A DNA stretch of 64,000 nt, taken from NCBI GenBank assembly GCA_031423895.1, contig JANPGK010000004.1, forward strand, positions 10,561-74,560. Reading direction: 5' to 3'. Both the position numbers and the translations under genes were made by a program. Below are positions 4,568 through 59,051 of the stretch, one piece after another (position 1 is the stretch's first letter; each line of letters starts with the position of its first letter). The notes beneath the pieces were generated by a model. That model made no database searches. It had not been told where the DNA came from and saw only the letters and a list, made by a program, of their open reading frames with translations. The DNA comes from Hyphomicrobiales bacterium. Its GTDB lineage: Bacteria; Pseudomonadota; Alphaproteobacteria; Rhizobiales; JANPGK01.

Positions 4568-4577
4568 TGCACTTAAG

Positions 4578-4760
4578 GCTCCCCACTTGTGGGGGAGCTG
4601 GCGAGCGTAGCGAGACTAAGGGGGGTAAGAAACGTTTTGCGAAGCAAATGAAACGATCCAGTGAATCGTTTCAAGTTTCGAACGCCCGTAGCGATGCGAA
4701 GGGCAGGGAAAGCAAAACAAGAAAACCCCTCCCCCTAACCCCCTCCCACAAGGGGAGAAG
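4578..4760. repeat. Composite family-B repeat (B1 hairpin module, spacer, B2 module), copy 1, intergenic between flbD and flhA
   Basis: The B1 module is GCTCCCCACTTGTGGGGGAGCTG..CTAAGGGGGGTAAG. The B2 module is AAAACCCCTCCCCCTAACCCCCTCCCACAAGGGGAG. The same modules recur at 38326, 47214 and 49339. The spacer holds further hairpins (GAAACGAT-N7-ATCGTTTC). Confidence 0.8.
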
Positions 4761-6911: not shown

Positions 6912-6945
6912 AGTTTAGGTGTGAAGCGGGGGCTAAGTTTCTGCT

Positions 6946-7024
6946 GTCATCCTGAACGTGAGTAAAGGATCTCCAGCCGATTGAGTTCAATCTCAAGGAG
7001 ATTCTTCGCTGTGCTCAGAATGAC
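6946..7024. repeat. Family-A palindromic repeat, copy 1 (intergenic, after flhA)
   Basis: Termini GTCATCCTGA....CAGAATGAC with internal AAGGATCTC / GGAGATTCTTC. Related copies are at 31184 and 44462. Confidence 0.75.
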
Positions 7025-7104
7025 AAGCGCCACGAATGTCAAAGCGTGATGAGTGAAATGACAACTTTCTTTCCATCCCATCAAAACCCTGTTAACCTCC
7101 CCCT

Positions 7105-10579: not shown

Positions 10580-10676
10580 CTGAAAAAATTAGCATACAAG
10601 GCAATCTCATTATTCATGATGGGATTGCCACCACGCCCGCGCTGCGCTATGGCTTGTCTCAAGAATAGGGCATCCC

Positions 10677-12699: not shown

Positions 12700-12735
12700 T
12701 GTTCCACGAATTAACGAGACAGCGCTCTTTATTTC

Positions 12736-12803
12736 GTCATCCTCGGGCTTGACCCGAGGATCTACTTAAAGTGGATGGTCGGATCAAGCCCGACTATGAC
12801 GGC
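12736..12803. repeat. Family-C repeat, copy 1 (intergenic between trpA and accD)
   Basis: Sequence GTCATCCTCGGGCTTGACCCGAGGATCTACTTAAA..GATGGTCGGATCAAGCCCGAC. A longer inverted copy is at 44698..44786. It shares the GTCATCCT terminus with family A. Confidence 0.7.
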
Positions 12804-16537: not shown

Positions 16538-17758
16538 ATGGAAATGGCGAAGACAATCTTGTTCCTGTGTAACGACCTTAGCTATTTCGCGGCACATCGC
16601 AACCATGTGAAGCGCTATGTGGGCACGCTTGGTTGGCATGTGAATATTGCGGCCGATGCAGGCGCAATGCCACCCAAATTATGGCCACAGAATTTCTATC
16701 CCATTTCTATCGTGCGGCGGTCGTTGTCGTCCCTCAAGGATGCGCGCGCCATGTTCAAAATTTGGCAGCTGCTGCGCGATTTAAAGCCTGATATTGTGCA
16801 TGCCATCACCATAAAGCCTGTGTTGATGGTCGGGTTTTTGATGCTGTTGCGAGTTATTTTATGCCGGCCTTCCATCCCCGCTGTCCTCACATTCCCTGGC
16901 TTGGGAGAGGTGTTTCGGCCTGTCCATTGCGAGCCTTCATTCATGGTAATGCTCAAACGCCGCGTGAGAAAATCATTGGTGAAAATGGCTTATCGGATGT
17001 TGGCACGGCTACCCAACTGCATCATGACCTTTGAAAATAAGGAGGATTGCGCCTATGCCATCCGCGAATTTGGCGTGCCGGCGCATCGTGCTGTGGCCAT
17101 TCATGGGGCCGGGGTAGATGTTGAAGAATTTCATGCAGAGCGATCTTTCGCTCCAGCGCTTCCACTGCGCATTGTGTTTGCAGCGCGCTTGTTGCGTTCA
17201 AAAGGGATTTTTGATTTTCTTGATGCGGTGAAGCTGGCGCGCGGGCAGGGAGCGCAATTTACTGCGCAGGTTGCGGGCATTCCCGACCATGGTAACCCCG
17301 ACAGTATCAGCCAATTGGAAATTGAAGCCATTAGTCGCACTGGTATGCTAGAATATTTGGGGTTTATCGACGACATGGCGCAATTATTGCGTGAAACCGA
17401 TATTGTGGTGCTGCCCACTTCATACCGCGAGGGGCTGCCCCGTGTGTTGATTGAGGCCGCAGCGGCTGGGTGCGCATTGTTGGCGTATAATACATCGGGC
17501 ATTGCCGATATTGTGAAACATGGCAGCAATGGCTATGTGGTGCAAACGGGCAATATTGCCGAGCTTGCCAAGCGCATGGTGCAATTGGTTGAGGCGCCCG
17601 CGCGCGTTCATAAAATGCAAAAAGCATCGCTCAAACTCATCCAAAATGGGCATTTTTCTGAACGTGCTGTGCAGAAACAATTTTTGAATGTGTATGAAAC
17701 GGCGTTTACGTTGAATCAGGCTGCCAGCCCCAAATCCAGTCCATTCGGCGGCGAATAA
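16538..17758 (+). CDS. Glycosyltransferase, GT4 (GT-B fold) family
   Basis: C-terminal EX7E-type region (PTSYREGLPRVLIEAAAAGCALLAYNTSGIADIVKHGSNGYVV). Confidence 0.8.
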   Translation: MEMAKTILFLCNDLSYFAAHRNHVKRYVGTLGWHVNIAADAGAMPPKLWPQNFYPISIVRRSLSSLKDARAMFKIWQLLRDLKPDIVHAITIKPVLMVGFLMLLRVILCRPSIPAVLTFPGLGEVFRPVHCEPSFMVMLKRRVRKSLVKMAYRMLARLPNCIMTFENKEDCAYAIREFGVPAHRAVAIHGAGVDVEEFHAERSFAPALPLRIVFAARLLRSKGIFDFLDAVKLARGQGAQFTAQVAGIPDHGNPDSISQLEIEAISRTGMLEYLGFIDDMAQLLRETDIVVLPTSYREGLPRVLIEAAAAGCALLAYNTSGIADIVKHGSNGYVVQTGNIAELAKRMVQLVEAPARVHKMQKASLKLIQNGHFSERAVQKQFLNVYETAFTLNQAASPKSSPFGGE

Positions 17759-18836: not shown

Positions 18837-18857
18837 TGTGTGTCCTCAAGATGATTT

Positions 18858-18938
18858 AAGAGTTGAAATGCTCACGCTCCAACTCTTATTACGCTTCGCG
18901 GTTCGCTATTGCTCCTGCCAATTCATCAGATGAATTGG
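18858..18938. repeat. Family-D structured repeat, copy D1 (intergenic)
   Basis: Hairpin 1 is AAGAGTTG-N14-CAACTCTT. The core is ACGCTTCGCGGTTCGCTATTGCTCC. Hairpin 2 is CCAATTCAT-CAG-ATGAATTGG. Related units are at 42792, 57170 and 63969. Confidence 0.7.
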
Positions 18939-19016
18939 GCGCATTATCAATCAATATAATCGCTTGAAAACGCCTGCGCATTGATCCATATCATGCACAT
19001 ATGGAAATGAAGTGCA

Positions 19017-31157: not shown

Positions 31158-31183
31158 GTGAGTCTTCATTCTCAATAATCGTT

Positions 31184-31265
31184 GTTATCCTGAGGCATCG
31201 CCGAAGGATCTCTTGCCGCCTCAGGCTCCGTTCAGGGAGATCCTTCACCTGCGGTTCAGAATGAC
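31184..31265. repeat. Family-A palindromic repeat, copy 2 (intergenic between mlaD and the RND gene)
   Basis: Sequence GTTATCCTGAGGCATCGCCGAAGGATCTC...GGGAGATCCTTCAC...TTCAGAATGAC. Degenerate extra terminus-like motifs flank it (TCATTCTCA at 31167, CTCAGGATAGC at 31275). Confidence 0.75.
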
Positions 31266-31290
31266 ATGAAAGTTCTCAGGATAGCTGCGA

Positions 31291-34365: not shown

Positions 34366-34662
34366 TTAGGCGGAAACTGGCAGGGCTTCTACTTTTAATC
34401 GAAACCCAATAGCTGCCATTACTTTGGCCACGGTTTCAAGCTTAGGGTGGCCAGTGCGAGAAAAGGCTTTATAAAGCCCCGCACGGGTGAGGTCTGTTTT
34501 TTGCGCAATTTCACTCACACCACGGGCACGCATAATATCGCCAACGGCATCGCAAAAAGTTTCAATATCGCCGTCCTCGATGAGGAAATTGAGGAAAAAC
34601 GCCATTTCTTCATCATTTTTGTAAGAATTCATGATACTCCAAGGGCGGGTTTCTAGTGGCAT
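34366..34662 (-). CDS. Antitoxin, addiction-module antidote protein (HTH, HigA-like)
   Basis: The sequence ..FLNFLIEDGDIETFCDAVGDIMRARGVSEIAQKTDLTRAGLYKAFSRTGHPKLETVAKVMAAIGFRLKV matches the antidote family that pairs with RelE/ParE-type killer proteins. The start could instead be the internal ATG at 34632. Confidence 0.8.
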   Translation of the reverse strand: MPLETRPWSIMNSYKNDEEMAFFLNFLIEDGDIETFCDAVGDIMRARGVSEIAQKTDLTRAGLYKAFSRTGHPKLETVAKVMAAIGFRLKVEALPVSA

Positions 34663-34967
34663 TGTGGTCTCCTATATTCGTGTGCCATAGCAATGGCTTT
34701 TTGAATGTCGCGTGTCTGTGTGCTTTTATCGCCACCGGCCAGTACGATGATAAGTTCATGGCCTTGTTGTATGAAATAGATACGATACCCTGCACCAAAC
34801 GTAAATCTAAGCTCAAACACGCCTTCGCCTACACTTTTATAGTCTCCAAAATTGCCTTTTTGAAGACGTATTAGCCTTTGACGAATACGCGCACGTACAA
34901 CCAAATCACGCAAGTTGTGCATCCAATCATGAAAAGCTTGCGTTTCTTCAATCGTATAGTGGTTCAT
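34653..34967 (-). CDS. Type II toxin, RelE/ParE superfamily (addiction-module killer protein)
   Basis: 104-aa ORF (..FHDWMHNLRDLVVRARIRQRLIRLQKGNFGDYKSVGEGVFELRFTFGAGYRIYF...VLAGGDKSTQTRDIQKA). The toxin-first gene order matches HigBA-like modules. Confidence 0.8.
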   Translation of the reverse strand: MNHYTIEETQAFHDWMHNLRDLVVRARIRQRLIRLQKGNFGDYKSVGEGVFELRFTFGAGYRIYFIQQGHELIIVLAGGDKSTQTRDIQKAIAMAHEYRRPQCH

Positions 34968-37384: not shown

Positions 37385-37413
37385 AAAAACGCCAGCGCAT
37401 TGCTGCACTGGCG
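37385..37413 (-). terminator. Rho-independent terminator after trxA
   Basis: The minus strand reads CGCCAG-N12-CTGGCG followed by TTTTT. Confidence 0.6.
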
Positions 37414-37833: not shown

Positions 37834-40800
37834 TCACGTAATTGTGTTGAGGGGGATGGATTCGATGTGCCCTGAATGAGTCCATACAATTCGCGCTTCA
37901 ATGGGGTGTGGCGTGGGCAGTGTGTGCAGCAATAATTGCGCATATAGCGCCAATTGTGCGGCATATTGGGGGGCTATCCCGCCCGTATAGGCTTCAGTTT
38001 TAAAGTCGATGATCACATGGGCTGTGGGCGTGATGGCCAGCAGATCAATACGGCCAGAAATCAATTGTTGAGTGCCATTAACGAGCAATTCTCCTAAAAT
38101 AGGTAGCTCGGCATATCGTTGCGGCGCATTCCACACATCGGCCAATGCGGGCAGGGCAGCGGTACGGCGCACTTCAGTGATGATACCCTGCGGCGCGCCT
38201 GCATGTGCGTGTGGGTCAGTTTTGGTGATATAGGCCACCAATTGCGCATCATCGGGCAGGTTGGGCACCAATTCGAGCAATTTGTGGATGATGGTACCAC
38301 GCAAGGCTGGGTTTTTGATAGACAGGCTCCCCACTTGTGGGGGAGCTGCTGAGTGTAACGAAGCTGAGGGGGGTATTCTTTCTTCATATTTAGATACGTT
38401 ACCCCCCTCAGTCACGCCCAACAAAAAATTGGGCGCGCCAGCTCCCCCACAAGTGGGGAGCATAAGTAAAGTAGCCGCTTCACGTACGCTTATGCTCGAT
38501 GGCAAAATAATGCTGTGCAAGGCCGCGGGGGGGGGCAGTTGCGCATCACACTCAGCGGCAGATATGGGCAATTGCGCGGTGGGCACAGTGAGGGGCGCAG
38601 TTGTGGTGCGCAAGCGTTTGAAGCTGCCGTGAGGCGTTTCGATCACCTCATGCGTGCCACCCCATGCCTGCACTGCGGCGTCTATTGCGGTGTACCAAGC
38701 GGTAGGCATTGCGATGTCGATGGTGTTTTTTTCCAGTGCATTGGCTTGCTTCTGCCCTGCAGCACCAAAAATAAACACTCTGTCGCGCGCGCGGGTGAGT
38801 GCCACATAGAGCAGCCGCATGGTTTCAGCATATTCTGCGGTGTTGTGCGCGTCTTTTGCCGTGGTGAAGGCGGGCGGCGCAGCGTGTTTATGCACGGTTA
38901 AAATTGGGGTGTTGCACTGCGTAAACAAAATTTTAGGCGCTTTTTGCTGGCGATAATCAAAGCAGCTGTCGGCCAATATCACCACGGGCGCTTCCAGCCC
39001 TTTGGCATTGTGCACGGTCAGAATGCGCACGGCGGTGCTGGCTTCGCTCATTTCGCGCTTTAAAATATGCGATGTAGTGCGGATCCACTGGGTGAAGCTG
39101 AACAGATCGGGCACATTTTGTTCCTCAAATTTTAGGATCAAGCCTAAAAATTCATCGAGAATTTCATGCACATCGGTGCCCATGCGTGTAGCAAACGCCA
39201 CACGCCCATTGGTGTTGCTGAGCATATGCATGAAAAATTCATAGGGTCGCGTGGTGAGCGCCAAGGCTTGCAAATGGTGCAATTGTGCTAATGCAGCGCC
39301 CCAATGTGGCTGCTCATGTGCGCGCGCCTCAAGCGCTTGCAACAACGTGCCGCTGCGCTGCGGCGCAATCGCAAGGATGTCGTCTTCATTGAGGCCCAAT
39401 ATTGGCGATTTCAGCGCGCAAGCCAGTTGCAAATCATCCTGCGGCAGCAGCACACAATCGGCCAACGCCAGCAGATCCTGCACGGCAATATTGTCGGTGA
39501 GGGTCAGCCGATCTGCACCGCCAACCGGGATGCCAGCATCGCGCAGTGCTTTCAGCAGCGTCTCAAATATGCCCTTACGCGCGCGCACCAATATTAAAAT
39601 ATCGCCTGCGGTGATGCGACGCGGGGCCCCGTTTTTGCCCTCCACCACATGAGGCGCGGTGAGTAGGTCTTGGATGGTATAAATAATTTGCTGCACCATT
39701 TTATGAATGGCATTGCGGGGCTGCTGCGGCGCCGTGGCGGCCTCCCATGTGAGTGTAATTTCGTGCTTGGTGTCGGGCAGGCACAGCGGCCACACATCCA
39801 CACAGCCAAAACTGCTGCGGCGCTGGGTTTCATGGATCACGGGTGTGGCATCGGTGGTGAGCTGCTGCGCACGCGGGCGCGGGGCAAACACACCATCCAC
39901 AAGCGCCAACACATCGGGAGTGGTGCGGAATGAAATTTGCAGCGGCTCTTCATGCCATTCCAGCTGCGCATCGGTAATTTTATGAGCAAATGTGGCCTTC
40001 ATATGGGCAAATCGCTCTGGCGCTGCGCCTTGAAAACGGTAAATTGATTGTTTCTCATCCCCCACCACAAACACAGTGCGGGTTTTAGCGCGGCCCGCAT
40101 CGCCCACAAAAAACTCACTCGAAAGTTGCCAGATGATGTCCCATTGCGCATGGCTGGTGTCTTGGGCTTCGTCCACAAGAATGTGATCGATCCCCCCATC
40201 GAGTTTGTAATGCACAAAGGCGGCATCGGCACGCAGCAATAAATTGCGGGTTTTGAGCACCAAATCGTCGAAATCGAGCATGCGTTGCGCGGTTTTGGCG
40301 GCTTGATAGTGTTTCATCACCTCAATGGCAACCGTAATGGCACTGAGGCTGGCCTCAAAGGCGCGGAAATTATACACATGGGTGCGCAGTTCCAACAATT
40401 GGGCGATGCAGGTCTCATAAAACAGGGCATGTTCAGGGAATTGTGTCACAATGTCCTTGGTGGGGGATCGTTTTTTCAGCAGCTCGCCTGATTGCGTTTC
40501 CACCAATTTCATCAAACCCGCAAACCGCGTGTTGAACGACGATGCGGCCAGGCTTTCCCGCAGATATGTGGCAATTTTGGTGTCGTGATCCTTGCCCGTT
40601 TCAAAAATTTGGCATAGCCAGTGCACCATTTTTGGATTTGTCAGCGGAATATCGCGCAGCTGTTTTGCCAGCGTTTCAAGGGTTTGCGTGGGCGGCACAT
40701 CTAGCGTGGCCCGTAGCGCCAATTCAAGCGATTGCGTGGTGTGGTTTAACATGAAGCTGAGTAGCGCATCGCGTTTAGAAAGCAGCCCTTGCAGGTGCAT

Positions 40801-41376
40801 TTCTAGCTGCGCACTGCCCAAAATACTGTGCAAACGCTTTAAATCTGCATGAAATGGCGAGCCAATTTGGCCCGCGCTGCGATAGAATTTTTGGAAAGCG
40901 CCCGCCCATAATGTTTGTATTTGGGGTTCATCTAGCAGTGTGAAACTTGTGGGCACAGGGGCTTCAAACGGAAATTGCTGCAGCACACGCTCGCAAAATG
41001 CATGAAGCGTTTGAATTTTCAAACCGCCAGGCGTTTCTAGCGCTGTGGCAAATAATCTGCGGGCATGGCGCAATTGGCGCGAGCTGGCAGGCGCATTGGT
41101 TAGGGTTTCAATGGCAATTTTCAACGCGGCATCATCTAAATTGACCCAAATTTTGAGGGTATCAAACACGCGTGCGGCCATTTCAGCTGCAGCGGCGCGG
41201 GTGAAGGTGAGGCACAGAATTTTTTCAGGAGGTGTGCCTGCCAATAGTAAGCGGATCACCCGCTGCGTGAGCACGTGCGTTTTGCCCGAGCCTGCATTGG
41301 CGGCCACCCACGCGCTGGCGTTTGTATGCGTGATCCGCGCGATTTTTTGGGCGTGGCTGCTCAAGGGGTTATTCAT
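37834..41376 (-). CDS. addA: Double-strand break repair helicase-nuclease AddA
   Basis: UvrD-type helicase motifs (AANAGSGKTHVLTQR, VDEAQDTS, ..) and a C-terminal PD-(D/E)XK nuclease region. I placed the start at ATG 41376, overlapping the addB stop by 8 nt. The longer ORF-track start at 41532 would run 160 nt into addB. Confidence 0.9.
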   Translation of the reverse strand: MNNPLSSHAQKIARITHTNASAWVAANAGSGKTHVLTQRVIRLLLAGTPPEKILCLTFTRAAAAEMAARVFDTLKIWVNLDDAALKIAIETLTNAPASSRQLRHARRLFATALETPGGLKIQTLHAFCERVLQQFPFEAPVPTSFTLLDEPQIQTLWAGAFQKFYRSAGQIGSPFHADLKRLHSILGSAQLEMHLQGLLSKRDALLSFMLNHTTQSLELALRATLDVPPTQTLETLAKQLRDIPLTNPKMVHWLCQIFETGKDHDTKIATYLRESLAASSFNTRFAGLMKLVETQSGELLKKRSPTKDIVTQFPEHALFYETCIAQLLELRTHVYNFRAFEASLSAITVAIEVMKHYQAAKTAQRMLDFDDLVLKTRNLLLRADAAFVHYKLDGGIDHILVDEAQDTSHAQWDIIWQLSSEFFVGDAGRAKTRTVFVVGDEKQSIYRFQGAAPERFAHMKATFAHKITDAQLEWHEEPLQISFRTTPDVLALVDGVFAPRPRAQQLTTDATPVIHETQRRSSFGCVDVWPLCLPDTKHEITLTWEAATAPQQPRNAIHKMVQQIIYTIQDLLTAPHVVEGKNGAPRRITAGDILILVRARKGIFETLLKALRDAGIPVGGADRLTLTDNIAVQDLLALADCVLLPQDDLQLACALKSPILGLNEDDILAIAPQRSGTLLQALEARAHEQPHWGAALAQLHHLQALALTTRPYEFFMHMLSNTNGRVAFATRMGTDVHEILDEFLGLILKFEEQNVPDLFSFTQWIRTTSHILKREMSEASTAVRILTVHNAKGLEAPVVILADSCFDYRQQKAPKILFTQCNTPILTVHKHAAPPAFTTAKDAHNTAEYAETMRLLYVALTRARDRVFIFGAAGQKQANALEKNTIDIAMPTAWYTAIDAAVQAWGGTHEVIETPHGSFKRLRTTTAPLTVPTAQLPISAAECDAQLPPPAALHSIILPSSISVREAATLLMLPTCGGAGAPNFLLGVTEGGNVSKYEERIPPSASLHSAAPPQVGSLSIKNPALRGTIIHKLLELVPNLPDDAQLVAYITKTDPHAHAGAPQGIITEVRRTAALPALADVWNAPQRYAELPILGELLVNGTQQLISGRIDLLAITPTAHVIIDFKTEAYTGGIAPQYAAQLALYAQLLLHTLPTPHPIEARIVWTHSGHIESIPLNTIT
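38326..38461. repeat. Inverted pair of family-B1 modules, located inside the addA coding sequence
   Basis: GCTCCCCACTTGTGGGGGAGCTG..CTGAGGGGGGTATTC, a 19-nt spacer, then the reverse-complement module GTTACCCCCCTCAG..GCTCCCCCACAAGTGGGGAGC. The AddA frame stays open across it. Confidence 0.8.
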
Positions 41377-44300
41377 CTTCGCCGCCTTCATCTTCCTCGG
41401 CCAGCACACCCCATTCGGCAATGCGCGCCAAATGGTCGTAATCGGTGTAGCTCGCGATTTTCCCGCCATATGGTTTGACATAAAACGGGTGGGTTGGGGT
41501 GCACATGGCCTGCAGCGCCACATGCACGCCATCGAGAATATTGGTGCGCATTTGCGCTAAGGCCTCGCCTTTGCCCATGGGCTGCGATGCTTTTAGTTGC
41601 GTGAAATTATCGGTGAATTTGATGTATTCCAGTGCATGTATGGAAGTGAGTGTGCCGTTTTTCTCAAAATTTTGGGCATGTGCCATTTCCCCCAGTAGCA
41701 CCAATTGTGGATAAAGCCCCGCATTCACTAGTTTTGTGGCGGGCACAACCCCTGTTTTAAAATCGCTTATCACAATGCCATCGCTGCGCTGTTCCACGCG
41801 GTCGGCCCGGCCATGAATGGTGAATTTCTCCCCCATAATATCCCACTGCATGCGATACGACACTTCGCAGCGTACTTTATGCGTATGCTGGCGGCGAGCC
41901 TGTTCAAACGCAATGATGCCATCGACCACGCCATGTAATTGCAGCCGCCATAAAATCCGTTCTTTATCTGGCAAAACGCTGGTGTGGGTTTCAATCTCAG
42001 TCAATACGCTGTTGTGCAGCGCCTGTGTGTCGTCGCTCCACTGTGTGGCCGCCAGCTCAACAATTGTGTGGATGAGGGCCCCGCGAATGCGCGCATCGGG
42101 CAATTGGCCAATGGGTTCAAGAGGCTTCAAGCCCAACACATATTCGGCATAAATGGCATAAGGGTTGTGTAGCAGGGTTTCAATTTTGGTGACAGAAAGC
42201 GTTTTAGGCCGCAATGCCACAGCAGGGCAAGGGGTTGGTGCGGCAATGGGCGCAAAATTATGCGTGGCGTTGTGCGCGCGCACCTGTGCCAGCACTGCAT
42301 TGCCACGGCTGCGCCACGGTTCAAAGCTATGTGTGCCCATCACCGCCGAAATGCGCTGCAAAAACCGCGATGGCAGTGTTGGTGCGCCGCCCTCGCGTAC
42401 CGATCGCGTGAGAATAATGTGGTTTTGCCCCATAAATTGTGCAAAATCATGCGCTGAAAGCGCAATGCGCCGCTCTGGCATGGGCAAACCAATGGCACTG
42501 CGGAGTGCTCGCCCCAGCCACACATCGGGCATATTGGCTGGCGGCCACATACCTTCATTGAGCCCACCCAAAATCACCGTGTCGAATGTGTGCAAACGCG
42601 CTTCCAACGCGCCCATCACCACAATGCGGCTGTTGTGCAGGGGGGGCGGTAATGTGGGCGCCATGTTCAAAATTTGGGTGAGAATGGCGGGGTATGCCGC
42701 GAATGGGATTAAAAATTGCGTGGCTTGGCCAGTATGCGCATCGTGAATGGCTTGCAACACTGTGGTGTGAGCGGTGTCGGCATCATAGTTTAAAACTTGG
42801 CATGCTGTCGCGCCAAGTTGAAGACACGCTTCGCGGTTCGCTATCGCTCCTTCCAAATTTTGAGAAAATTTGGGGATATCTTCATCCTGTACAACGGGCA
42901 CGAGCGCGGCAAAAATTTGGGCAAATTGCTCATTGTAGGTGGCAAAAGGTTGGTGCGGATTATCGGCAGTTTGCAAGGCCAAAAATGGTGCAATTGCCGC
43001 CAAATAGCCTTCTAAAACCGCCTGCGCGTTGTGCCAATCCTCTAAGGTGAGTGATTTTTGCGCGTGGGTCAGCTGATGCGGCTTTGCACCTTCGCAGTGA
43101 GCATTTTGCCATGTTTCAAAATTATGAGCAAGCGCCGCATTCCAATCGCCAGCAGGGGCAATGCCGCGAAATAGCGCGCATTCCAGCGCGGTAACAGCTG
43201 TTTTTAGATCCAAAACGCCTTCAACCTGCACCATAGGGTGACGCAAAAATGCCAGTGCGGCTGCGGGAGATTGTGGCGCGGCTAGCGCATCAAGCAACAG
43301 GCGGGCGGCACGCCCTGGCATGGTGTGCAACAATGGCAACCCGCCAGAATCGGGCACATCAACTCCAAATGCCTGCAAATGCGCACACACGCGCCGCGCT
43401 AGGGTGCGGTTTGGCGTGATCAGTGCCGCAGTTTCATGAGGTGTGGCGGCTGTTAGGCGTAATTGCAGCGCAATGCTCAGCGCTTCCTCTTCCTCATGTG
43501 CAGCCTCTAAAAGCGTGACATGCGCGGTGGCGTTCATCAATTCTGCATCGCATTGCTGCACGCGCCATGAATGCCATTCATCGGTGGTGCTGGCGGGCTG
43601 CAAGGCATAAGACACAATGGTTTCGAGCAGCGGTGGCGGGGTTATACGCCCTAAAATCGGCACATCGGCAGGGTGGGCAATATGCAGAGTAGTGAGCAGC
43701 CGCTTGAGGTGAATTTGCGGGTGAGTTTCGGCCTGCCCAGCAGCGCCAATGGCCGCCCAAGCGGTTACGCTCAGCTGCGTGTCAAGCCCCGGAATGATGA
43801 GCGTGCCATATGGGCTGCGGGCAATCGCGGCCAATAGCTCCGCAGTGGCAGGCGTTGAGCCAGTGGAGCCCGCCGCGATGACGCGGCCAAATTGTCCCGC
43901 CTCAATGCGCTGCGCCATGGCATGGATGGCTTCATCCCAGGCCACAATTGGGTCTTGCAGGCTATGGTCCTGCAAAAATTGCGGCCATTGCTGTAGTACT
44001 ATGTTCAAAAAACCGAGGTTGAGCTCGTGGCTGCCCAAAAATTCGGTGGGAATCATGTCTGCAATTGCGTGCGCACTCACATGCTCAAGCGTAAGCTGGT
44101 CAAGCGTATTGGCCAAATCTTGCGCCAGCGCAACACATTCAGCATGGGAAATCTGTATAAAAATTGGGTCGTTTGGGTTGTGCCATTTTGGTGTGTGGCC
44201 TGCATTCACCGCCGCATATACCGCCTGTTTCCATTGCAAAATTAAGCGTGCCAGCACCCATACGCGCTGGGTGGGTGTAACCGTCGTTTCTGATATATCT

Positions 44301-44668
44301 TCATGTTCCAGCCCAATTTCACCCACATCCCGCACGGGAATGATGCGTGGCAAAATTAGGGCTTGCGTACCAGCTTGCCGCAATAATTCCAGCTCAAAAT
44401 TTTTGCATGCACGCCGAGTGGGGAAAAATATGGTGGTATTGGCGAGTGCGAATGGGCTTATGTCATCCTGAGGCTGCGCCGAAGGATCTCCCAGAATGTG
44501 AGCACAATCGGAAGGAGATCCTTCACTCCCGTCTTCGCTACGCTTCGCCGAGGCAAGTCGTTCAGGATGACAGCTGCTGTTGGTTTGCCCACCCAACACA
44601 AACTGTGCCAATGTTTCAAAAAACGGCCGCGACGCGGGGATGGTGTAGATGTTGGGTGCGTGAGGCAT
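41369..44668 (-). CDS. addB: Double-strand break repair protein AddB (alphaproteobacterial type)
   Basis: About 1100-aa ORF upstream of and overlapping addA. The N-terminus is MPHAPNIYTIPASRPFFETLAQ...FFPTRRA and there is a C-terminal PD-(D/E)XK-like region. Start ATG 44668 (ORF-track start 44719 lies inside repeat C2). Confidence 0.9.
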   Translation of the reverse strand: MPHAPNIYTIPASRPFFETLAQFVLGGQTNSSCHPERLASAKRSEDGSEGSPSDCAHILGDPSAQPQDDISPFALANTTIFFPTRRACKNFELELLRQAGTQALILPRIIPVRDVGEIGLEHEDISETTVTPTQRVWVLARLILQWKQAVYAAVNAGHTPKWHNPNDPIFIQISHAECVALAQDLANTLDQLTLEHVSAHAIADMIPTEFLGSHELNLGFLNIVLQQWPQFLQDHSLQDPIVAWDEAIHAMAQRIEAGQFGRVIAAGSTGSTPATAELLAAIARSPYGTLIIPGLDTQLSVTAWAAIGAAGQAETHPQIHLKRLLTTLHIAHPADVPILGRITPPPLLETIVSYALQPASTTDEWHSWRVQQCDAELMNATAHVTLLEAAHEEEEALSIALQLRLTAATPHETAALITPNRTLARRVCAHLQAFGVDVPDSGGLPLLHTMPGRAARLLLDALAAPQSPAAALAFLRHPMVQVEGVLDLKTAVTALECALFRGIAPAGDWNAALAHNFETWQNAHCEGAKPHQLTHAQKSLTLEDWHNAQAVLEGYLAAIAPFLALQTADNPHQPFATYNEQFAQIFAALVPVVQDEDIPKFSQNLEGAIANREACLQLGATACQVLNYDADTAHTTVLQAIHDAHTGQATQFLIPFAAYPAILTQILNMAPTLPPPLHNSRIVVMGALEARLHTFDTVILGGLNEGMWPPANMPDVWLGRALRSAIGLPMPERRIALSAHDFAQFMGQNHIILTRSVREGGAPTLPSRFLQRISAVMGTHSFEPWRSRGNAVLAQVRAHNATHNFAPIAAPTPCPAVALRPKTLSVTKIETLLHNPYAIYAEYVLGLKPLEPIGQLPDARIRGALIHTIVELAATQWSDDTQALHNSVLTEIETHTSVLPDKERILWRLQLHGVVDGIIAFEQARRQHTHKVRCEVSYRMQWDIMGEKFTIHGRADRVEQRSDGIVISDFKTGVVPATKLVNAGLYPQLVLLGEMAHAQNFEKNGTLTSIHALEYIKFTDNFTQLKASQPMGKGEALAQMRTNILDGVHVALQAMCTPTHPFYVKPYGGKIASYTDYDHLARIAEWGVLAEEDEGGEDE
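42792..42873. repeat. Family-D structured repeat, copy D2, inside the addB coding sequence
   Basis: Hairpin 1 is AAAACTTGG-N12-CCAAGTT. The core is ACGCTTCGCGGTTCGCTATCGCTCC. Hairpin 2 is CCAAATTTT-GAG-AAAATTTGG. Confidence 0.7.
44462..44571. repeat. Family-A palindromic repeat, copy 3, inside the addB coding sequence (N-terminal region)
   Basis: GTCATCCTGAGGCTGCGCCGAAGGATCTC...GGAGATCCTTCAC...TTCAGGATGAC, with perfect 10-bp terminal inverted repeats. Confidence 0.75.
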
Positions 44669-44697
44669 GTGGTTTTCACGTCCATAATACGTCATGG

Positions 44698-44786
44698 TCG
44701 GGCTAGTAGACCCGACCATCTTCTTTTAAAGTAGATCCTCGGCCATCCGCTTTCGCCCGAAAGCGGGCTACAGCGAGACAAGCGCC
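44698..44786. repeat. Family-C repeat, copy 2 (inverted relative to copy 1), immediately upstream of addB
   Basis: The reverse complement reads GTCATCCTCAGG...GAGGATCTACTTTAAA..GATGGTCGGGTCTACTAGCCCGAC, matching 12736..12803 apart from a larger internal hairpin segment. Confidence 0.7.
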
Positions 44787-44811
44787 TGAGGATGACACTA
44801 TAAAACGCGAA

Positions 44812-46521: not shown

Positions 46522-47298
46522 TCATGTAATTTTGTCAAATCTCAAATAACAACTCCTTCGCCCCTCGCGCCGTGCTTTGGCTTCATAGCGGGTTTGCACC
46601 CAGCCCTCATAAGGTGTGAGGAAATCAGCGGCGGTGTGCGCTGGCCATGTGAACGCGGGGTGTTCGCGGATGTGCTGCAAGGTCCACGCCGCATAGCTAT
46701 CAATATCGGTGGCACAGCGAAATTGGCCGCCCAGCACCAAAATACGGGCGAATTCATTCAGCGCATCGATGGAGACAAAGCGCCGCTTCCAATGGCGTTT
46801 TTTGTGCCATGGGTCGGGGTAAAACAGGTGCACATGCGAGAATTGCGCATCTGGCAGGGTACGCAGCAAAAAATGTGCATCGTCATTATAAAAGCGGATG
46901 TTGGGCAGGTGTTCATCCAAGCAATCGCGCACAGCGGCGGCATATCCATTCAAAAACGGCTCCACGCCGATGAAGCCCACAGTGGGGTTATTGCGGGCGC
47001 GGTTAAGCAAGTGCTCGCCCGAACCAAAGCCAATTTCCAGCTCATAGCGTTCGAATGGTTGGCCAAATAGCTGTGATAGATCGAGCATTTGCCCATGCGT
47101 AAACGTAATATCTACAGCGCCTTGCTGGGCGATGGCGTCTTTTTTGCCAAGCGATAGCGCCTTGCCTTTGCAGCGGCCATAAAACTTGCGGATGGTTTCG
47201 GGTGGGGGTGAAGATTCTCCCCTCCCCTTGCGGGAGGGGGTAGGGGGAGGGGTTTTCTCATCAGCATTCGCTGAGTATATGTTTGGAATATTATCCAT
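46522..47298 (-). CDS. trmB: tRNA (guanine-N7)-methyltransferase TrmB with a repeat-encoded N-terminal extension
   Basis: Core motifs: EIGFGSGEHL, FYPDPWHKKRHWKRRF. The first ~38 aa (..EKTPPPTPSRKGRGESSPPP..) are encoded by the family-B2 repeat module. Confidence 0.85.
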   Translation of the reverse strand: MDNIPNIYSANADEKTPPPTPSRKGRGESSPPPETIRKFYGRCKGKALSLGKKDAIAQQGAVDITFTHGQMLDLSQLFGQPFERYELEIGFGSGEHLLNRARNNPTVGFIGVEPFLNGYAAAVRDCLDEHLPNIRFYNDDAHFLLRTLPDAQFSHVHLFYPDPWHKKRHWKRRFVSIDALNEFARILVLGGQFRCATDIDSYAAWTLQHIREHPAFTWPAHTAADFLTPYEGWVQTRYEAKARREGRRSCYLRFDKIT

Positions 47299-47354
47299 TA
47301 AGAATACCCCCCTCAGTCACGCTATGCGTGACAGCTCCCCCGCAGGTGGGGAGC
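47214..47354. repeat. Composite family-B repeat (B2, spacer, B1 in reverse orientation), copy 3, straddling the trmB start codon
   Basis: B2 spans 47214..47257 (TCTCCCCTCCCCTTGCGGGAGGGGGTAGGGGGAGGGGTTTT). B1 spans 47300..47354 (AAGAATACCCCCCTCAG..GCTCCCCCGCAGGTGGGGAGC). The trmB ATG (47298) lies in the spacer between them. Confidence 0.8.
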
Positions 47355-47361
47355 CGTTTTC

Positions 47362-49310: not shown

Positions 49311-50698
49311 TTTTAAGAAATATGTGCCTTTACTTTACCTCTCCCCTTGTGGGAGAGGGTGGCGCGAAGCGCCGGGTGAGGGGTTTTCTTTCTAGCGCCG
49401 TGAAGAATACCCCCCTCAGTCTCGCAAGCGCTCGACAGCTCCCCCACAAGTGGGGAGCATTAAGTATATGCTTATTTATTCTATGTATTTTTATTTTCCC
49501 CGCCCACGCGCAACAAAGTGGCGACCCGCAATTTCAGGCTTTTGTTCAGCAAAAAATCTGGCCAAAAGCCCAAGCCGCAGGCATTGATCAAGCCACTTTC
49601 GCGGCGGCGTTTGAGGATGTGACCTCGCCCGACCGCTCTATTTTGGGCACGGCCAAAAAGCAGCCCGAATTTGCCAGCACAGTGGGCAATTATGTGGGCA
49701 AACGCGTTTCGCCTGCGCGCATTCAAAATGGGGCAAAAAAGCTGGAAGATGGCCGCATTCACAACGCGTTGAGCCAAATCGGCAAAAAATATAATGTGGA
49801 TCCATTTGTTGTGCTCTCCATTTGGGGTATTGAATCCTCCTATGGCGCGGCGCTCAACCCCGAAACGCTGAAAAACGTGTTTCGCTCGATGGCCACTTTG
49901 GCGTATGCAGACAGTGCGCGACGCGAGTTTGGCTTTGAACAAACCATTGCAGCGCTGAAAATTGTGAAGCGTGGCTATGCTGAAGTGCATGAAATGCGCG
50001 GCTCGTGGGCGGGCGCAATGGGGCACACGCAATTCATACCCACAAGTTATTTGGTGTATGCGCAAGATTTTGACGGCGATGGACACCGCGATATTTGGAA
50101 CAATATTGGCGATGCATTGGCCTCAACCGCCGCACATTTGGCCACATCCGAAGGCAATGCCCCTACATGGATTGACGAAGAGCCATGGGGCGTGGAAGTG
50201 GTGGTGCCGCAGGGCTTTAATTATGCCAATGCGTATGAAAATGGTGGATTTGAGGAAAAATCGATCACAGCATGGCAACAGCTTGGCATTCGTGCGGCTA
50301 GCGGCGGCCTGCCAAACTCACGCGGCGAGGCTACGCTCTATGTGCCATCGGGCGTAAATGGCCCTGCATTTTTGCTATACCCGAATTTTAAGGTGATTAA
50401 GCGCTATAATTTCTCAAATGCCTATGCGTTGGCAGTGGGGTTGCTCGCCGACAGGTTGCGCGGTGAAAATGTGCCAGTACGATCATGGCCAAGCGATGAC
50501 GACCAACTCACGCGCATTGCCGATGTGAAACTGCTGCAAAGCCGCCTCACACAATTGGGCCATTATAATGGCAAAATTGATGGGTTCGTGGGGCCCAAGG
50601 TCTATGCCGCCACCCATGCGTTTCAAGCGCGTGCGGGCATTTCCCCTGCTGATGGGCTGCCTACGCAAGAAGTCTTGGAAGCGTTGCGCGATAAATAG
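49307..50698 (+). CDS. Lytic murein transglycosylase (MltB/SLT_2-like) with a C-terminal peptidoglycan-binding domain; start codon uncertain
   Basis: Catalytic region ..LSIWGIESSYG..., WAGAMGHTQFIPTSY. The C-terminal PG_binding_1-like repeat is LQSRLTQLGHYNGKIDGFVGPKVYAATHAFQ. The signal peptide (..LSICLFILCIFIFPAHA/QQ) follows the repeat-encoded residues. An in-frame GTG at 49400 is an alternative start. Confidence 0.8.
   Translation: MILRNMCLYFTSPLVGEGGAKRRVRGFLSSAVKNTPLSLASARQLPHKWGALSICLFILCIFIFPAHAQQSGDPQFQAFVQQKIWPKAQAAGIDQATFAAAFEDVTSPDRSILGTAKKQPEFASTVGNYVGKRVSPARIQNGAKKLEDGRIHNALSQIGKKYNVDPFVVLSIWGIESSYGAALNPETLKNVFRSMATLAYADSARREFGFEQTIAALKIVKRGYAEVHEMRGSWAGAMGHTQFIPTSYLVYAQDFDGDGHRDIWNNIGDALASTAAHLATSEGNAPTWIDEEPWGVEVVVPQGFNYANAYENGGFEEKSITAWQQLGIRAASGGLPNSRGEATLYVPSGVNGPAFLLYPNFKVIKRYNFSNAYALAVGLLADRLRGENVPVRSWPSDDDQLTRIADVKLLQSRLTQLGHYNGKIDGFVGPKVYAATHAFQARAGISPADGLPTQEVLEALRDK
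49339..49458. repeat. Composite family-B repeat (B2 plus B1, reverse orientation), copy 4, inside the 5' end of the transglycosylase ORF
   Basis: CTCTCCCCTTGTGGGAGAGGGTGGCGCGAAGCGCCGGGTGAGGGGTTTTC, a 13-nt spacer, then GAAGAATACCCCCCTCAG..GCTCCCCCACAAGTGGGGAGC. Confidence 0.8.
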
Positions 50699-56640: not shown

Positions 56641-57474
56641 TCACACCCGATAATACGCCTGCCATGCCGTTTCAGCTTCTGTAATCGATTCTGGCATGCC
56701 CACATGCATCCACAGCCCCTCAAGCCGCACGCCGTGCAGGCGCTCTTGCGCAATCAGCGTGTTGAAAATGCGGTTGAGCGAAAATGCTGACCCCACGTCA
56801 TATTCATGAAACAGACTGGCCTTTAATATCGCCACGCCTGTATACACAAACGGCGCCACATCCACGCCCGCACGGCGGGTAATTGTGCCATCTTGCGCCA
56901 GATGAAAGTCGCCGCGCCCTTCATAGCCTGTGGTGTGGGGCGTTGCGGCCAATAGCAGTACCGCATCCATGCGGGCGGGGTCGAAATAGTGCCGCAAGCG
57001 CTGTAGGCCGCTACTGGCGCCATCAATCCACACTGTGTCGGAATTGCATAGATAAAACACATCGCGGTTGATGAGTGGCAGGGCCTTGGCTATGCCGCCG
57101 CCTGAATCGAGAATGTGGGTACGCTCGTCGGAGATAACAATTTCTATCTGGGGGATTTCCTCCCCCTTAGCGCCGCTATTATGTGCGGCGCCCCCCTCCA
57201 CGCTGCGCGCTGCGCTAGCGCTTGTGCCAAAATCACTGAGTGATTTTGGGTCTTGCTGACCTTGTAGCAAATGCGCTTCAAGCATGTCGGCCAAATAATG
57301 CACATTCACCACGGCGCGGTGCACACCTGCAGCGGCCAGCCTGTCGAGTGTGTGGTCAATCATCGCTCTGCCCATGACAGGCACCATGGGTTTGGGCATA
57401 TGCAAGGTGATGGGGCGCATGCGGGTGCCAAGCCCTGCGGCCAAAATCATTGCGGTGTCGATTTCAGCCACCAT
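56641..57474 (-). CDS. murU: Sugar-phosphate nucleotidyltransferase, MurU-like (N-acetylmuramate alpha-1-phosphate uridylyltransferase family)
   Basis: N-terminus AMILAAGLGTRMRPITLHMPKPMVPV. It sits beside the TsaE/AmgK-like fusion, as in other alphaproteobacteria. It carries a ~30-35 aa low-complexity insert encoded by repeat D3. Confidence 0.75.
   Translation of the reverse strand: MVAEIDTAMILAAGLGTRMRPITLHMPKPMVPVMGRAMIDHTLDRLAAAGVHRAVVNVHYLADMLEAHLLQGQQDPKSLSDFGTSASAARSVEGGAAHNSGAKGEEIPQIEIVISDERTHILDSGGGIAKALPLINRDVFYLCNSDTVWIDGASSGLQRLRHYFDPARMDAVLLLAATPHTTGYEGRGDFHLAQDGTITRRAGVDVAPFVYTGVAILKASLFHEYDVGSAFSLNRIFNTLIAQERLHGVRLEGLWMHVGMPESITEAETAWQAYYRV
57170..57249. repeat. Family-D structured repeat, copy D3 (diverged), inside the murU-like coding sequence
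   Basis: Hairpin 1 is GCGCCGC-N8-GCGGCGC. The core ACGCTGCGCGCTGCGCTAGCGCTTG matches the D2 core at 19 of 25 positions with no gaps. Hairpin 2 is CCAAAATCACT-G-AGTGATTTTGG. Confidence 0.6.
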
Positions 57475-57476
57475 GG

Positions 57477-59051
57477 TTATGCCTTCAAAAATTTTTCATT
57501 GAGTGCGTCCATCAGCCCTGTGGATTTCAGCCATGCCTCATAAGGTGCTAGCACACCGTGGCGCAAATTGTGGCGCAAATAGCCCCACACACGCGGTTGA
57601 TGTGCCTTATAATGGGGCTTGTGATCGCGGATGCACAGGCGTGAGAATATGCCCAGAATTTTGGTGGCGCGTTGTGCGCCCATCAGGGCATAATCAGCAC
57701 GGAATTGCACCATGTTGAAATGCTCATCGCTATCCACCCGCGTGGTGCAATAGGCCAGCAATAGGGCTTGCTCCAGCTCCAGCGGCACATCCACCCGCGC
57801 ATCTTGCCCCAGCGAGGCCACATCATAGGCAAAGGGGCCGTGCAGGCCGTCTTGAAAGTCGATCATGCCAATTGTTTTTGGCATCGGCCTTTCGTCACAC
57901 CAAATGATGTTGGGAGAGTGGAAATCGCGCAATACCAACGTTTCCTGCCGCTGGCTGATGGGGGCAAGCATGTCTTCCCATATCGCTTTGAAATCGGCAC
58001 ATTGCGCCGCGCTTGGCTGCGTGCCCAGCACATCGGGCACACCCCATTGGAGGAACAAATCCACCTCGGCCATCATGCAGGGCAGGTCGTATGGCGGCAG
58101 CGTGTATTGGCCATTGGGAATGGGCAAAGTGCCCGTGAATTTTTGGCTATGCAGCATCGCGAGCGCTTTGGCGCTGGCGATGTAACGATCAGGGATCGGT
58201 GCGCGAGTGGCATCCAGCACGCCCTCATGCCCCAAATCTTCCAGCACCAAAATGCCCTGCGCAATATCGTGATAAAACACTTTTGGTGCAGCGAACCCAC
58301 GGAAATTGAGCGCTTTGGATATGGCCACAAACGCGGTTTGATCCTCGGCCAAATGGGCGATGTGGCTATAGGCAGGGGCGGTGCTGGATATGCCGGAATC
58401 GGGCTTTGGGGGCGCGTCCATTATCACCAAAACAGTATCATTTTCATGCTTTTTATGCAGGCGGGGCGCGCCGAACTCACCACCAATGTGCAGGCGCTCA
58501 TAGCGACGCGATGAGGCATCCCCCGCCATGGGCGTGCGGCGAAATTGGCCATAACCCCATGCATCCAGTTGCGTTTTGAGGGCTAACACACGCGGCAAGC
58601 GCTGCGCCCAAACCCCATGCCCAACCAGTTGCCAAGTGCGTTCACCGCTGGCGTCCATATCCATGTGAATGGCCAGATGATGATCTGCCCACAATGCAGC
58701 GCCATGATCAGGCCATTCCACAAAGGTGATGTGGTGGGGGAGGAGGTCTTCCACGCCCAACTCCTCCACCTCATGCGCGGATGTGGTGCGGTATAAATCC
58801 ATGTGCAGGGCGGGCGTGGTGAATTCGGCGCTATCGTAGGTTTGGATAATGGTGAACGTGGGGCTGGGCACATCGAGTGCTTCATCGCCGCTCATGGCCA
58901 CCAAGCACGCGCGGGTGAATGTGGTTTTGCCCACGCCAAGGTCGCCATACAGCGCGATTACGTCGCCTTTATGCAGGGTTGGCACAAGCGCACGGGCGAT
59001 TGCATTCACAGCTTCGAGGGATAAGTTTGAGAGTGTGGTTTTATATGTCAT
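57477..59051 (-). CDS. tsaE: Bifunctional TsaE (t6A ATPase) / aminoglycoside-phosphotransferase-family kinase (AmgK-like) fusion
   Basis: The N-terminal ~150 aa is TsaE/YjeE (GDLGVGKTTFTR, ...HMDLYR). The remainder is an APH-type kinase (GDASSRRYERL, RDFHSPNIIW, IDFQD). Confidence 0.8.
   Translation of the reverse strand: MTYKTTLSNLSLEAVNAIARALVPTLHKGDVIALYGDLGVGKTTFTRACLVAMSGDEALDVPSPTFTIIQTYDSAEFTTPALHMDLYRTTSAHEVEELGVEDLLPHHITFVEWPDHGAALWADHHLAIHMDMDASGERTWQLVGHGVWAQRLPRVLALKTQLDAWGYGQFRRTPMAGDASSRRYERLHIGGEFGAPRLHKKHENDTVLVIMDAPPKPDSGISSTAPAYSHIAHLAEDQTAFVAISKALNFRGFAAPKVFYHDIAQGILVLEDLGHEGVLDATRAPIPDRYIASAKALAMLHSQKFTGTLPIPNGQYTLPPYDLPCMMAEVDLFLQWGVPDVLGTQPSAAQCADFKAIWEDMLAPISQRQETLVLRDFHSPNIIWCDERPMPKTIGMIDFQDGLHGPFAYDVASLGQDARVDVPLELEQALLLAYCTTRVDSDEHFNMVQFRADYALMGAQRATKILGIFSRLCIRDHKPHYKAHQPRVWGYLRHNLRHGVLAPYEAWLKSTGLMDALNEKFLKA

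Follow-up and report, generated by a model that had tools for sequence, protein, structure and literature searches.

Within a 64,000-nt stretch of a Hyphomicrobiales bacterium contig (hereafter, the window), the genes addB (44668–41369, minus strand) and addA (41376–37834, minus strand) carry three short palindromic repeats as part of their coding sequences, and a fourth repeat lies directly upstream of addB. These are probably elements of the repetitive extragenic palindromic (REP) or miniature inverted-repeat transposable element (MITE) kind that have survived in a large and loop-rich AddAB, the apparent hotspot being mainly a product of survivorship and of the post hoc choice of the window's densest stretch. 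Four repeat families (A–D) were defined over the window by self-BLAST and self-comparison, motif searches, and nhmmer family profiles, and they account for 13 loci, four in or next to addAB and nine elsewhere; the nhmmer census of the window returned no further, weaker copies. The features from which an initial annotation of this DNA drew its hotspot claim are all present in the sequence, namely copies of family B at 38326, family D at 42792, family A at 44462, and family C at 44698, plus a run of nine G residues at 38527. Its tally of four insertions within the operon and one upstream holds for the three copies inside open reading frames (ORFs) and for the upstream family C copy; the supposed fourth insertion is the G9 tract, which is no repeat copy.

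The family A element in addB spans 44461–44572 and is read in frame as residues ~30–68 of the protein; its DNA folds at −25 kcal/mol (z −3.7). Residues F16 and L75 are separated by 59 residues in this AddB versus 24–26 in 11 homologues, leaving 33 residues extra, and the AlphaFold 2 (AF2) predicted local distance difference test (pLDDT) score is below 50 over residues 30–72. The family D element (42792–42877, plus orientation) lies in frame but antisense across residues ~590–626 and consists of the core ACGCTTCGCGGTTCGCTA and two hairpins. Here, alignment reveals a 29-residue insertion confined to the query, with 138 residues between A548 and G686 as against 91–120 in the 11 homologues, and pLDDT is again below 50 (residues 592–631). 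The flanks of this site form the least conserved 20-column window of AddB. Together, residues 30–72 and 592–631 are the two largest internal low-confidence stretches of the AddB model, and other AddB lineages have small indels past residue 36 and in the 528–620 region.

In addA, the family B element (38324–38463) is read in frame as residues ~970–1018 and consists of a hairpin unit present twice in inverted orientation (a doublet), with one unit at 38323–38377 (plus strand) and the other at 38464–38399 (minus strand) on either side of a short spacer. Its outer arms of 23 nt and inner arms of 12 nt are both 100% complementary, and the DNA folds at −50.1 kcal/mol (z −11.4). The linker from P950 to R1026 measures 76 residues versus 42–58 in 11 homologues. 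Residues 925–1018, all with pLDDT below 50, constitute the whole helicase-to-nuclease tether of AddA; the family B copy lies within it, as does the G9 tract. Mean pLDDT is 75.7 for AddB and 71.6 for AddA, and the models are otherwise confident outside the inserts. In the alignments with 11 AddA and 11 AddB homologues, the extra residues (~30–33 per insert) coincide with repeat DNA, from which the repeats appear to be lineage-specific insertions relative to those homologues. All three copies inside these ORFs are in frame and lie in variable segments that AF2 leaves unmodelled, where homologues differ in length, and this supports the suggestion of the initial annotation that large multi-domain proteins offer permissive linkers in which repeats survive.

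The copies are not artefacts of assembly, a possibility that was considered and rejected: an independent Logan short-read assembly (SRR20217181) is 100% identical over addA with the family B copy it carries and over that half of addB which lies downstream. Its contigs L001 and L002 match the window without a difference and run no more than 8 bases past the window's end. Contig L001 stops at 42855, within the family D core in addB, where a break is to be expected because the repeat is multi-copy; the break suggests that copies closer than the window's 82%-identical one exist elsewhere in the genome.

Both genes are intact. Neither ORF contains a frameshift or stop, and AddB (1099 aa) and AddA (1180 aa) are of the alphaproteobacterial type. 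AddB scores 695.7 bits against NCBIfam TIGR02786 (addB_alphas; cut-off 486.5), in a match that begins at residue 69 and profile position 32, directly past the family A insert; AddA scores 948 bits against TIGR02784 (addA_alphas; cut-off 860.75) in a single stretch from residue 14 to 1171. Pfam finds UvrD-helicase, UvrD_C, and a C-terminal PDDEXK_1 domain in AddA, and a C-terminal PDDEXK_1 domain in AddB. The catalytic columns of AddA are invariant in 12 of 12 sequences including this one, comprising the Walker A motif GSGKT (G29–T33) and the DEAQD box (D402–D406), as is the nuclease signature D...D-x-K of both proteins (D1111, D1124, and K1126 in AddA; D956, D969, and K971 in AddB). With intact ORFs, scores above the equivalog cut-offs, and every homologue-invariant column kept, AddAB is predicted to be functional.

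AddB is identical to database protein P0001, with the N terminus MPHAPNIY (start at 44668), and AddA is identical to database protein P0121 as well as to its counterpart on L001. A longer addB ORF starting at 44719 was rejected: its first codons (MVGSTSPTMT) fall in the family C element, and both the alignment and P0001 favour 44668. The addA start overlaps the addB stop, and trxA (37751–37437, minus strand) is the last gene of the addB-addA-trxA operon, which is closed by a terminator-like hairpin at 37413–37390. Apart from that terminator, a promoter and terminator scan of the operon found nothing above shuffled expectation. Among 5.8 billion proteins, the closest AddB and AddA sequences are 34%–41% identical and come mostly from Hyphomicrobiales-type alphaproteobacteria, and no relative turned up when 185,579 species genomes were searched with AddB peptides; on both counts, the host would belong to an isolated alphaproteobacterial lineage. 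The window has a GC content of ~52%, the base composition of the addAB region is unremarkable, and the genes present include the free-living repertoire of flagella, chemotaxis, and biosynthesis.

Whether addAB is a hotspot depends on how the region is chosen. If it is taken as fixed in advance, finding 4 of 13 loci in its 6.95 kb has P = 0.045; when 13 random points are scanned for any 7-kb window holding at least four, such a window arises in ~0.70–0.76 of simulations. Once post hoc selection is counted, the clustering on which the initial annotation based its hotspot thus lies within chance. For copies inside ORFs, the tests use 4–5; addAB contributes three and murU one, and the trmB and SLT ORFs are additionally overlapped at their 5′ ends by one locus each. 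The corresponding probabilities are P = 0.016–0.039 for any adjacent gene pair and P = 0.13–0.27 for any 6.8-kb coding stretch, giving an overall range after correction for post hoc choice of 0.02–0.27. From one 64-kb window, the enrichment at addAB is nominal and suggestive at most; the initial annotation had itself noted that a single window cannot settle the matter, with which we agree.

Under the survivorship explanation, several families of small, non-coding, hairpin-forming, and non-autonomous repeats, of the REP, REPIN (REP doublets forming hairpins), or MITE kind, would have spread genome-wide. Purifying selection would remove those copies that break genes, and it is for this reason that most surviving copies would be intergenic. 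Intragenic copies would persist only where they are open in frame and situated in disordered, non-conserved segments. The three copies in addAB would have been tolerated given their open frames, the addition of only ~30–33 residues each, and their location in the least constrained parts of the proteins: an N-terminal loop of AddB, a variable segment of its helical domain, and the flexible tether between the AddA helicase and nuclease. With 2279 residues to hit, a long tether, and loops that vary, AddAB would collect survivors. Within this scheme, we infer the mobility of the elements, the selective filter, and the retained activity of the enzyme.

Several considerations weigh against the survivorship explanation. 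With a null based on gene length, at least three of the 4–5 copies inside ORFs fall in addAB with P = 0.006–0.013, and weighting the null by residues outside Pfam domains, of which addAB holds 18% of the window's total, still gives P = 0.02–0.05. Long proteins with much non-domain sequence are present in the window and carry no copies, namely the PAS kinase, FlgK, FlgL, and FlgE; the initial annotation was correct in listing the PAS kinase, the resistance-nodulation-division (RND) pump, and flhA as free of repeats. The flanks of the family A site in AddB are fairly conserved (88th percentile). This AddB is also the longest among its ~120 nearest homologues and alone among those examined in having two internal insertions of at least 29 residues. 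Finally, the segments might be ancestral sequence and not insertions.

In-frame carriage extends beyond addAB. A family D element (57170–57252, plus orientation) lies within the murU-like gene (56641–57474, minus strand) and splits the MurU profile, in that residues 8–74 and 109–269 match NCBIfam/Pfam profile positions 1–66 and 67–226, respectively, with ~34 extra residues between them. On the basis of this copy, in-frame carriage is a property of the genome rather than of addAB alone. Translation of the family D core gives GAIANREAC in addB but SASAARSV in murU, where another frame is used. In alphaproteobacteria, genes for a tsaE-kinase fusion and murU usually lie directly upstream of addB; in this genome, the two (56641–59051) are 12 kb from the addB start at 44668, with genes including a nitroreductase gene, nfuA, trmB, sugar-nucleotide genes, an SLT gene, motAB, argG, and leuC in between.

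Two family B copies overlap the 5′ ends of ORFs. The copy at 47219–47356 (minus strand), between an NTP-transferase gene and trmB, supplies ~27 codons at the start of the longest trmB ORF, and the copy at 49330–49466 (minus strand) is situated in an SLT_2 transglycosylase gene between its only in-frame start codons (upstream) and its signal peptide (downstream). Given this arrangement, the latter copy may encode an N-terminal extension or have displaced the start.

A search of 1.84 billion representative proteins with the AddA peptide encoded by family B matched only AddA and two unrelated repetitive proteins. A chimeric query assembled from every open frame in families A, B, and D gave no match at E ≤ 1, a search that also missed AddA itself. 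One parallel was found at the DNA level: module 2 of family B (described below) has an 86% identical repeat (L006, 2501–2552; peptide ...APLTRRSAPPSPGAGEGKSD...) in frame in the middle of the urea carboxylase coding sequence (uca) on plasmid pAB510b of Azospirillum sp. B510, again a long multi-domain protein. This copy points to in-frame carriage of the same class of module in another alphaproteobacterium.

The repeat elements are 67–187 bp long, are present at 2–4 loci per family in the 64 kb, and include none with a transposase-sized ORF; all four families fold far better than shuffled controls. Family A (loci 6945, 31183, and 44461) has terminal inverted repeats TGTCATCCTGA / TCAGGATGACA and inner arms GAAGGATCTC/GAGATCCTTC. 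Family B (loci 4571, 38324, 47219, and 49330) runs from a hairpin GCTCCCCACTTGTGGGGGAGC through a second, variable hairpin to CTGAGGGGGGTA and is often joined to module 2, CCCCTCCC..GGGAGGGG. Family C (loci 12735 and 44690) is bounded by terminal inverted repeats CGTCAT...ATGACG (CGTCATCCTCGGG...ATGACG). In family D (loci 10600, 18855, 42792, and 57170), the core ACGCTNCGCGNTNCGCTA lies between two hairpins whose sequence differs from copy to copy while their pairing is kept. The core itself is fixed (18–25 nt), and its four copies (10629–10664, 18888–18923, 42822–42859, and 57197–57233) are all in the plus orientation. Family D has no terminal inverted repeats and is, in this respect, unlike a standard MITE.

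Nine loci lie outside addAB, as the initial annotation had counted, and its remark that most are intergenic holds for six of them, the others being the murU copy and the two that overlap the longest trmB and SLT ORFs. Family A copies are found between flhA and a sensor kinase gene (6945–7025) and between mlaD and the RND pump gene (31183–31266). The pump gene is itself separated from that of its membrane-fusion protein by a HigB/HigA-like toxin-antitoxin pair (Gp49 and dnstrm_HI1420 domains; 34366–34967). A family B copy made of modules 1 and 2 (4571–4757, plus strand) lies upstream of flhA, and a family C copy (12735–12801, plus strand) lies between trpA and accD. Family D copies are located 13 nt upstream of trpB (10600–10665, plus strand) and between the divergent genes for an FAD monooxygenase and ftsY (18855–18942, plus strand). 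The remaining family C copy (44690–44797, minus strand) fills the gap of 143 nt that separates addB from the nitroreductase gene, stopping 22 nt short of the addB ATG; it can be aligned with the copy at 12735–12801, contains an extra 35-nt internal hairpin, and folds at −25.5 kcal/mol (z −4.8).

No Rfam family reached its gathering score anywhere in the window, and neither a transposase gene nor a gene for a REP-associated tyrosine transposase (RAYT) was found among the window's genes. At none of the 13 loci was there a consistent target-site duplication or shared flank motif, with element boundaries uncertain by a few bases, and the search for over-represented or skewed 7- and 8-mers (Chi-like words) found nothing striking in the 64 kb. 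One exact 20-mer, GCGCCATGTTCAAAATTTGG, is present both at 16746–16765, in a GT4 glycosyltransferase gene, and at 42658–42677, in addB, in opposite coding senses (0.01 expected). AddB has no insertion relative to homologues at this point. Read as its reverse complement, the 20-mer opens with CCAAATTTTGA, and so does the second of the two hairpins in the family D copy that lies 150 nt from it.

The G9 tract (38527–38535, plus strand) reads CCC CCC CCC on the coding strand and encodes Pro949–951 in the inter-domain linker of AddA, preceding the nuclease domain; P950 of this PPP is invariant in the family. It is the sole run of nine in the window, yet 26 of 100 dinucleotide shuffles hold at least one such run, and it matches no repeat family; it was therefore rejected both as a repeat insertion and as a significant feature. 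A G7 tract (42640–42646, plus strand) in addB likewise encodes PPP, and no other G/C run in the window is 7 or longer, so that all such runs lie within addAB. The C9 run could, in principle, slip, and its length is the same in both assemblies.

Families C and B have relatives at the sequence level. Family C is 76%–95% identical to multi-copy unannotated sequences in Rhizobium, Shinella, Sinorhizobium, and Neorhizobium replicons, and module 2 of family B is 80%–87% identical to multi-copy sequences in Azospirillum chromids. Families A and D had no match among 72,556 plasmids, and the full family B sequence (the 49330–49466 copy as query) matched plasmids over its module 2 part only. The 22-nt core of family B module 1 had 0 matches in 185,579 species genomes; the same 22-mer was found in three short metagenome contigs, in a different context (L003, 259–300; L004, 95–145; L005, 540–590). 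The order in these contigs is the family B hairpin GGCTCCCCACYTGYGGGGGAGCTG, a second hairpin of different sequence (TCAGCCGCAGGCTGA), and CTGAGGG, and thus unrelated contigs appear to have in common a two-hairpin layout in which the second stem varies.

A close behavioural parallel is with the Rickettsia palindromic elements (RPEs). These small palindromic repeats (about 100–150 bp, in several families) are found in frame in unrelated housekeeping genes of an alphaproteobacterium, at sites compatible with the three-dimensional structure, where the added peptide leaves the fold intact (Ogata et al. 2000, 2002, summarised in PMC10969869). The present repeats resemble them in being palindromes carried in unrelated genes (addB with two, addA and murU with one each), each of them open in frame, with the AddA and AddB inserts in fold-compatible segments of pLDDT below 50. 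They differ in that most copies are intergenic (6–8 of 13) and in having neither a fixed frame nor a conserved peptide, family D being read in two frames. The host also differs from Rickettsia in GC content (about 52%) and in gene content, being flagellated, with an AddAB closest to the Hyphomicrobiales type, and the likeness drawn here concerns behaviour. The repeats would be best filed as a further example of RPE-type behaviour and not as members of the RPE families.

Other classes match in part. REP and REPIN elements are mobilised by RAYT transposases and are extragenic by definition (PMC3116915, PMC3337134). Family B in addA is REPIN-like as an inverted doublet of a hairpin unit with a spacer, the other family B loci being singlets, and the repeats also have in common with REPs and REPINs the absence of target-site duplications and the maintenance of stem pairing while sequence varies. 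In contrast to those elements, the family B doublet sits inside the addA coding sequence (codons ~970–1018), the window contains no RAYT gene, and the 5′ GTAG-type tetranucleotide conserved among classical REPs is not apparent. Bacterial MITEs such as Correia elements, ERIC, and BOX do occur intragenically and can fuse in frame with host ORFs (PMC10969869). The present elements are MITE-like in being short, non-coding, and multi-copy and—in families A, B, and C—in having terminal inverted repeats; they are unlike MITEs in that no target-site duplication was seen, no parent insertion sequence was identified in the window, and family D has no terminal inverted repeats. A last comparison is with the interspersed palindromic repeats of Rhizobiales and Azospirillum (RIME or BIME-like mosaic elements). 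Points in common are the matches of family C and of family B module 2 and the construction of loci as mosaics of modules; as differences, those repeats are described as intergenic, and families A and D are unmatched in plasmids.

A true insertional hotspot, at which a DNA structure, the level of transcription, replication orientation, or a motif at addAB draws elements in, is unlikely. Its case consists of the nominal enrichment, the location of all clear in-ORF copies in minus-strand genes (GC skew suggests that the plus strand is leading), the extra 20-mer common to addB (42658) and the GT4 gene (16746), and the presence in addAB of the window's two longest G runs. However, a preference for this one operon would have to be common to four unrelated families whose ends differ, and DNA-level targeting is less well supported for that reason. 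Nor do the loci have a common flank motif or target-site duplication, the region's base composition does not stand out, and the scan-corrected P is ~0.7. Moreover, the insertion points match permissive loops at the protein level, which targeting at the DNA level does not predict. The proposal in the initial annotation that the elements target a local sequence or structural feature is accordingly disfavoured. Relaxed selection is likewise improbable. By this explanation, the enzyme would be little used or on its way to being lost, as in host-restricted bacteria; genes invaded by repeats are typical of bacteria with small populations and a host-associated life, such as Rickettsia, and this generality counts towards incipient decay, as do the low identity to any homologue (34%–41%) and the combination of three insertions with a slippage-prone C9 run and a C7 run in the coding strand. 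Decay is less well supported because the genes are intact and pass the curated equivalog cut-offs; in addition, the invariant columns, ATPase and nuclease motifs included, are kept, the AF2 models, inserts aside, are well folded, and the window has a full free-living repertoire.

An adaptive role was also raised by the initial annotation, which proposed a functional link between palindromic repeats and the enzyme that processes such structures. The palindromes might be kept as regulators (through mRNA hairpins or attenuation) or as modifiers of the enzyme, for instance through a longer tether, and this could perhaps be tied to the processing by AddAB of breaks at hairpins. The perfect 23 + 12 bp family B hairpin within the addA message (−50 kcal/mol), the occupation by family C of almost the whole 5′ spacer of addB, and the lengthening of the AddA tether from ~46 to 76 residues can all be cited in its favour. 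Such a role is nonetheless very improbable. Neither peptide nor frame is conserved, which makes it less well supported: addB and murU use different frames of family D, and the B-derived peptide is without counterpart in the representative proteins searched. Furthermore, the inserts are predicted to be disordered, the same families lie mostly in intergenic positions beside unrelated genes, and no promoter or terminator signal exceeds chance. It is likewise very improbable that a deep-branching, uncultured lineage independently evolved an RPE-like habit in which AddAB is a genuinely preferred sink, for example through feedback on hairpin-made breaks via AddAB activity or its longer tether. A lesser variant would make family D, with its core and pairing-conserved hairpins in one orientation, a distinct kind of structured mobile or recombination site.

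Survivorship of putatively mobile palindromes in a permissive protein remains the probable explanation, and the case carries a warning for annotation: repeats are the source of this AddAB's long 'linkers' and of the split in the MurU profile. It provides a clear and structurally interpretable example from outside Rickettsia of in-frame palindromic repeats in essential-type genes, with such insertions mapping to disordered loops and tethers. Should the enrichment prove real genome-wide, selfish hairpin-forming DNA would be linked to the very enzyme that processes the breaks it provokes, an unusual interaction between host and element.

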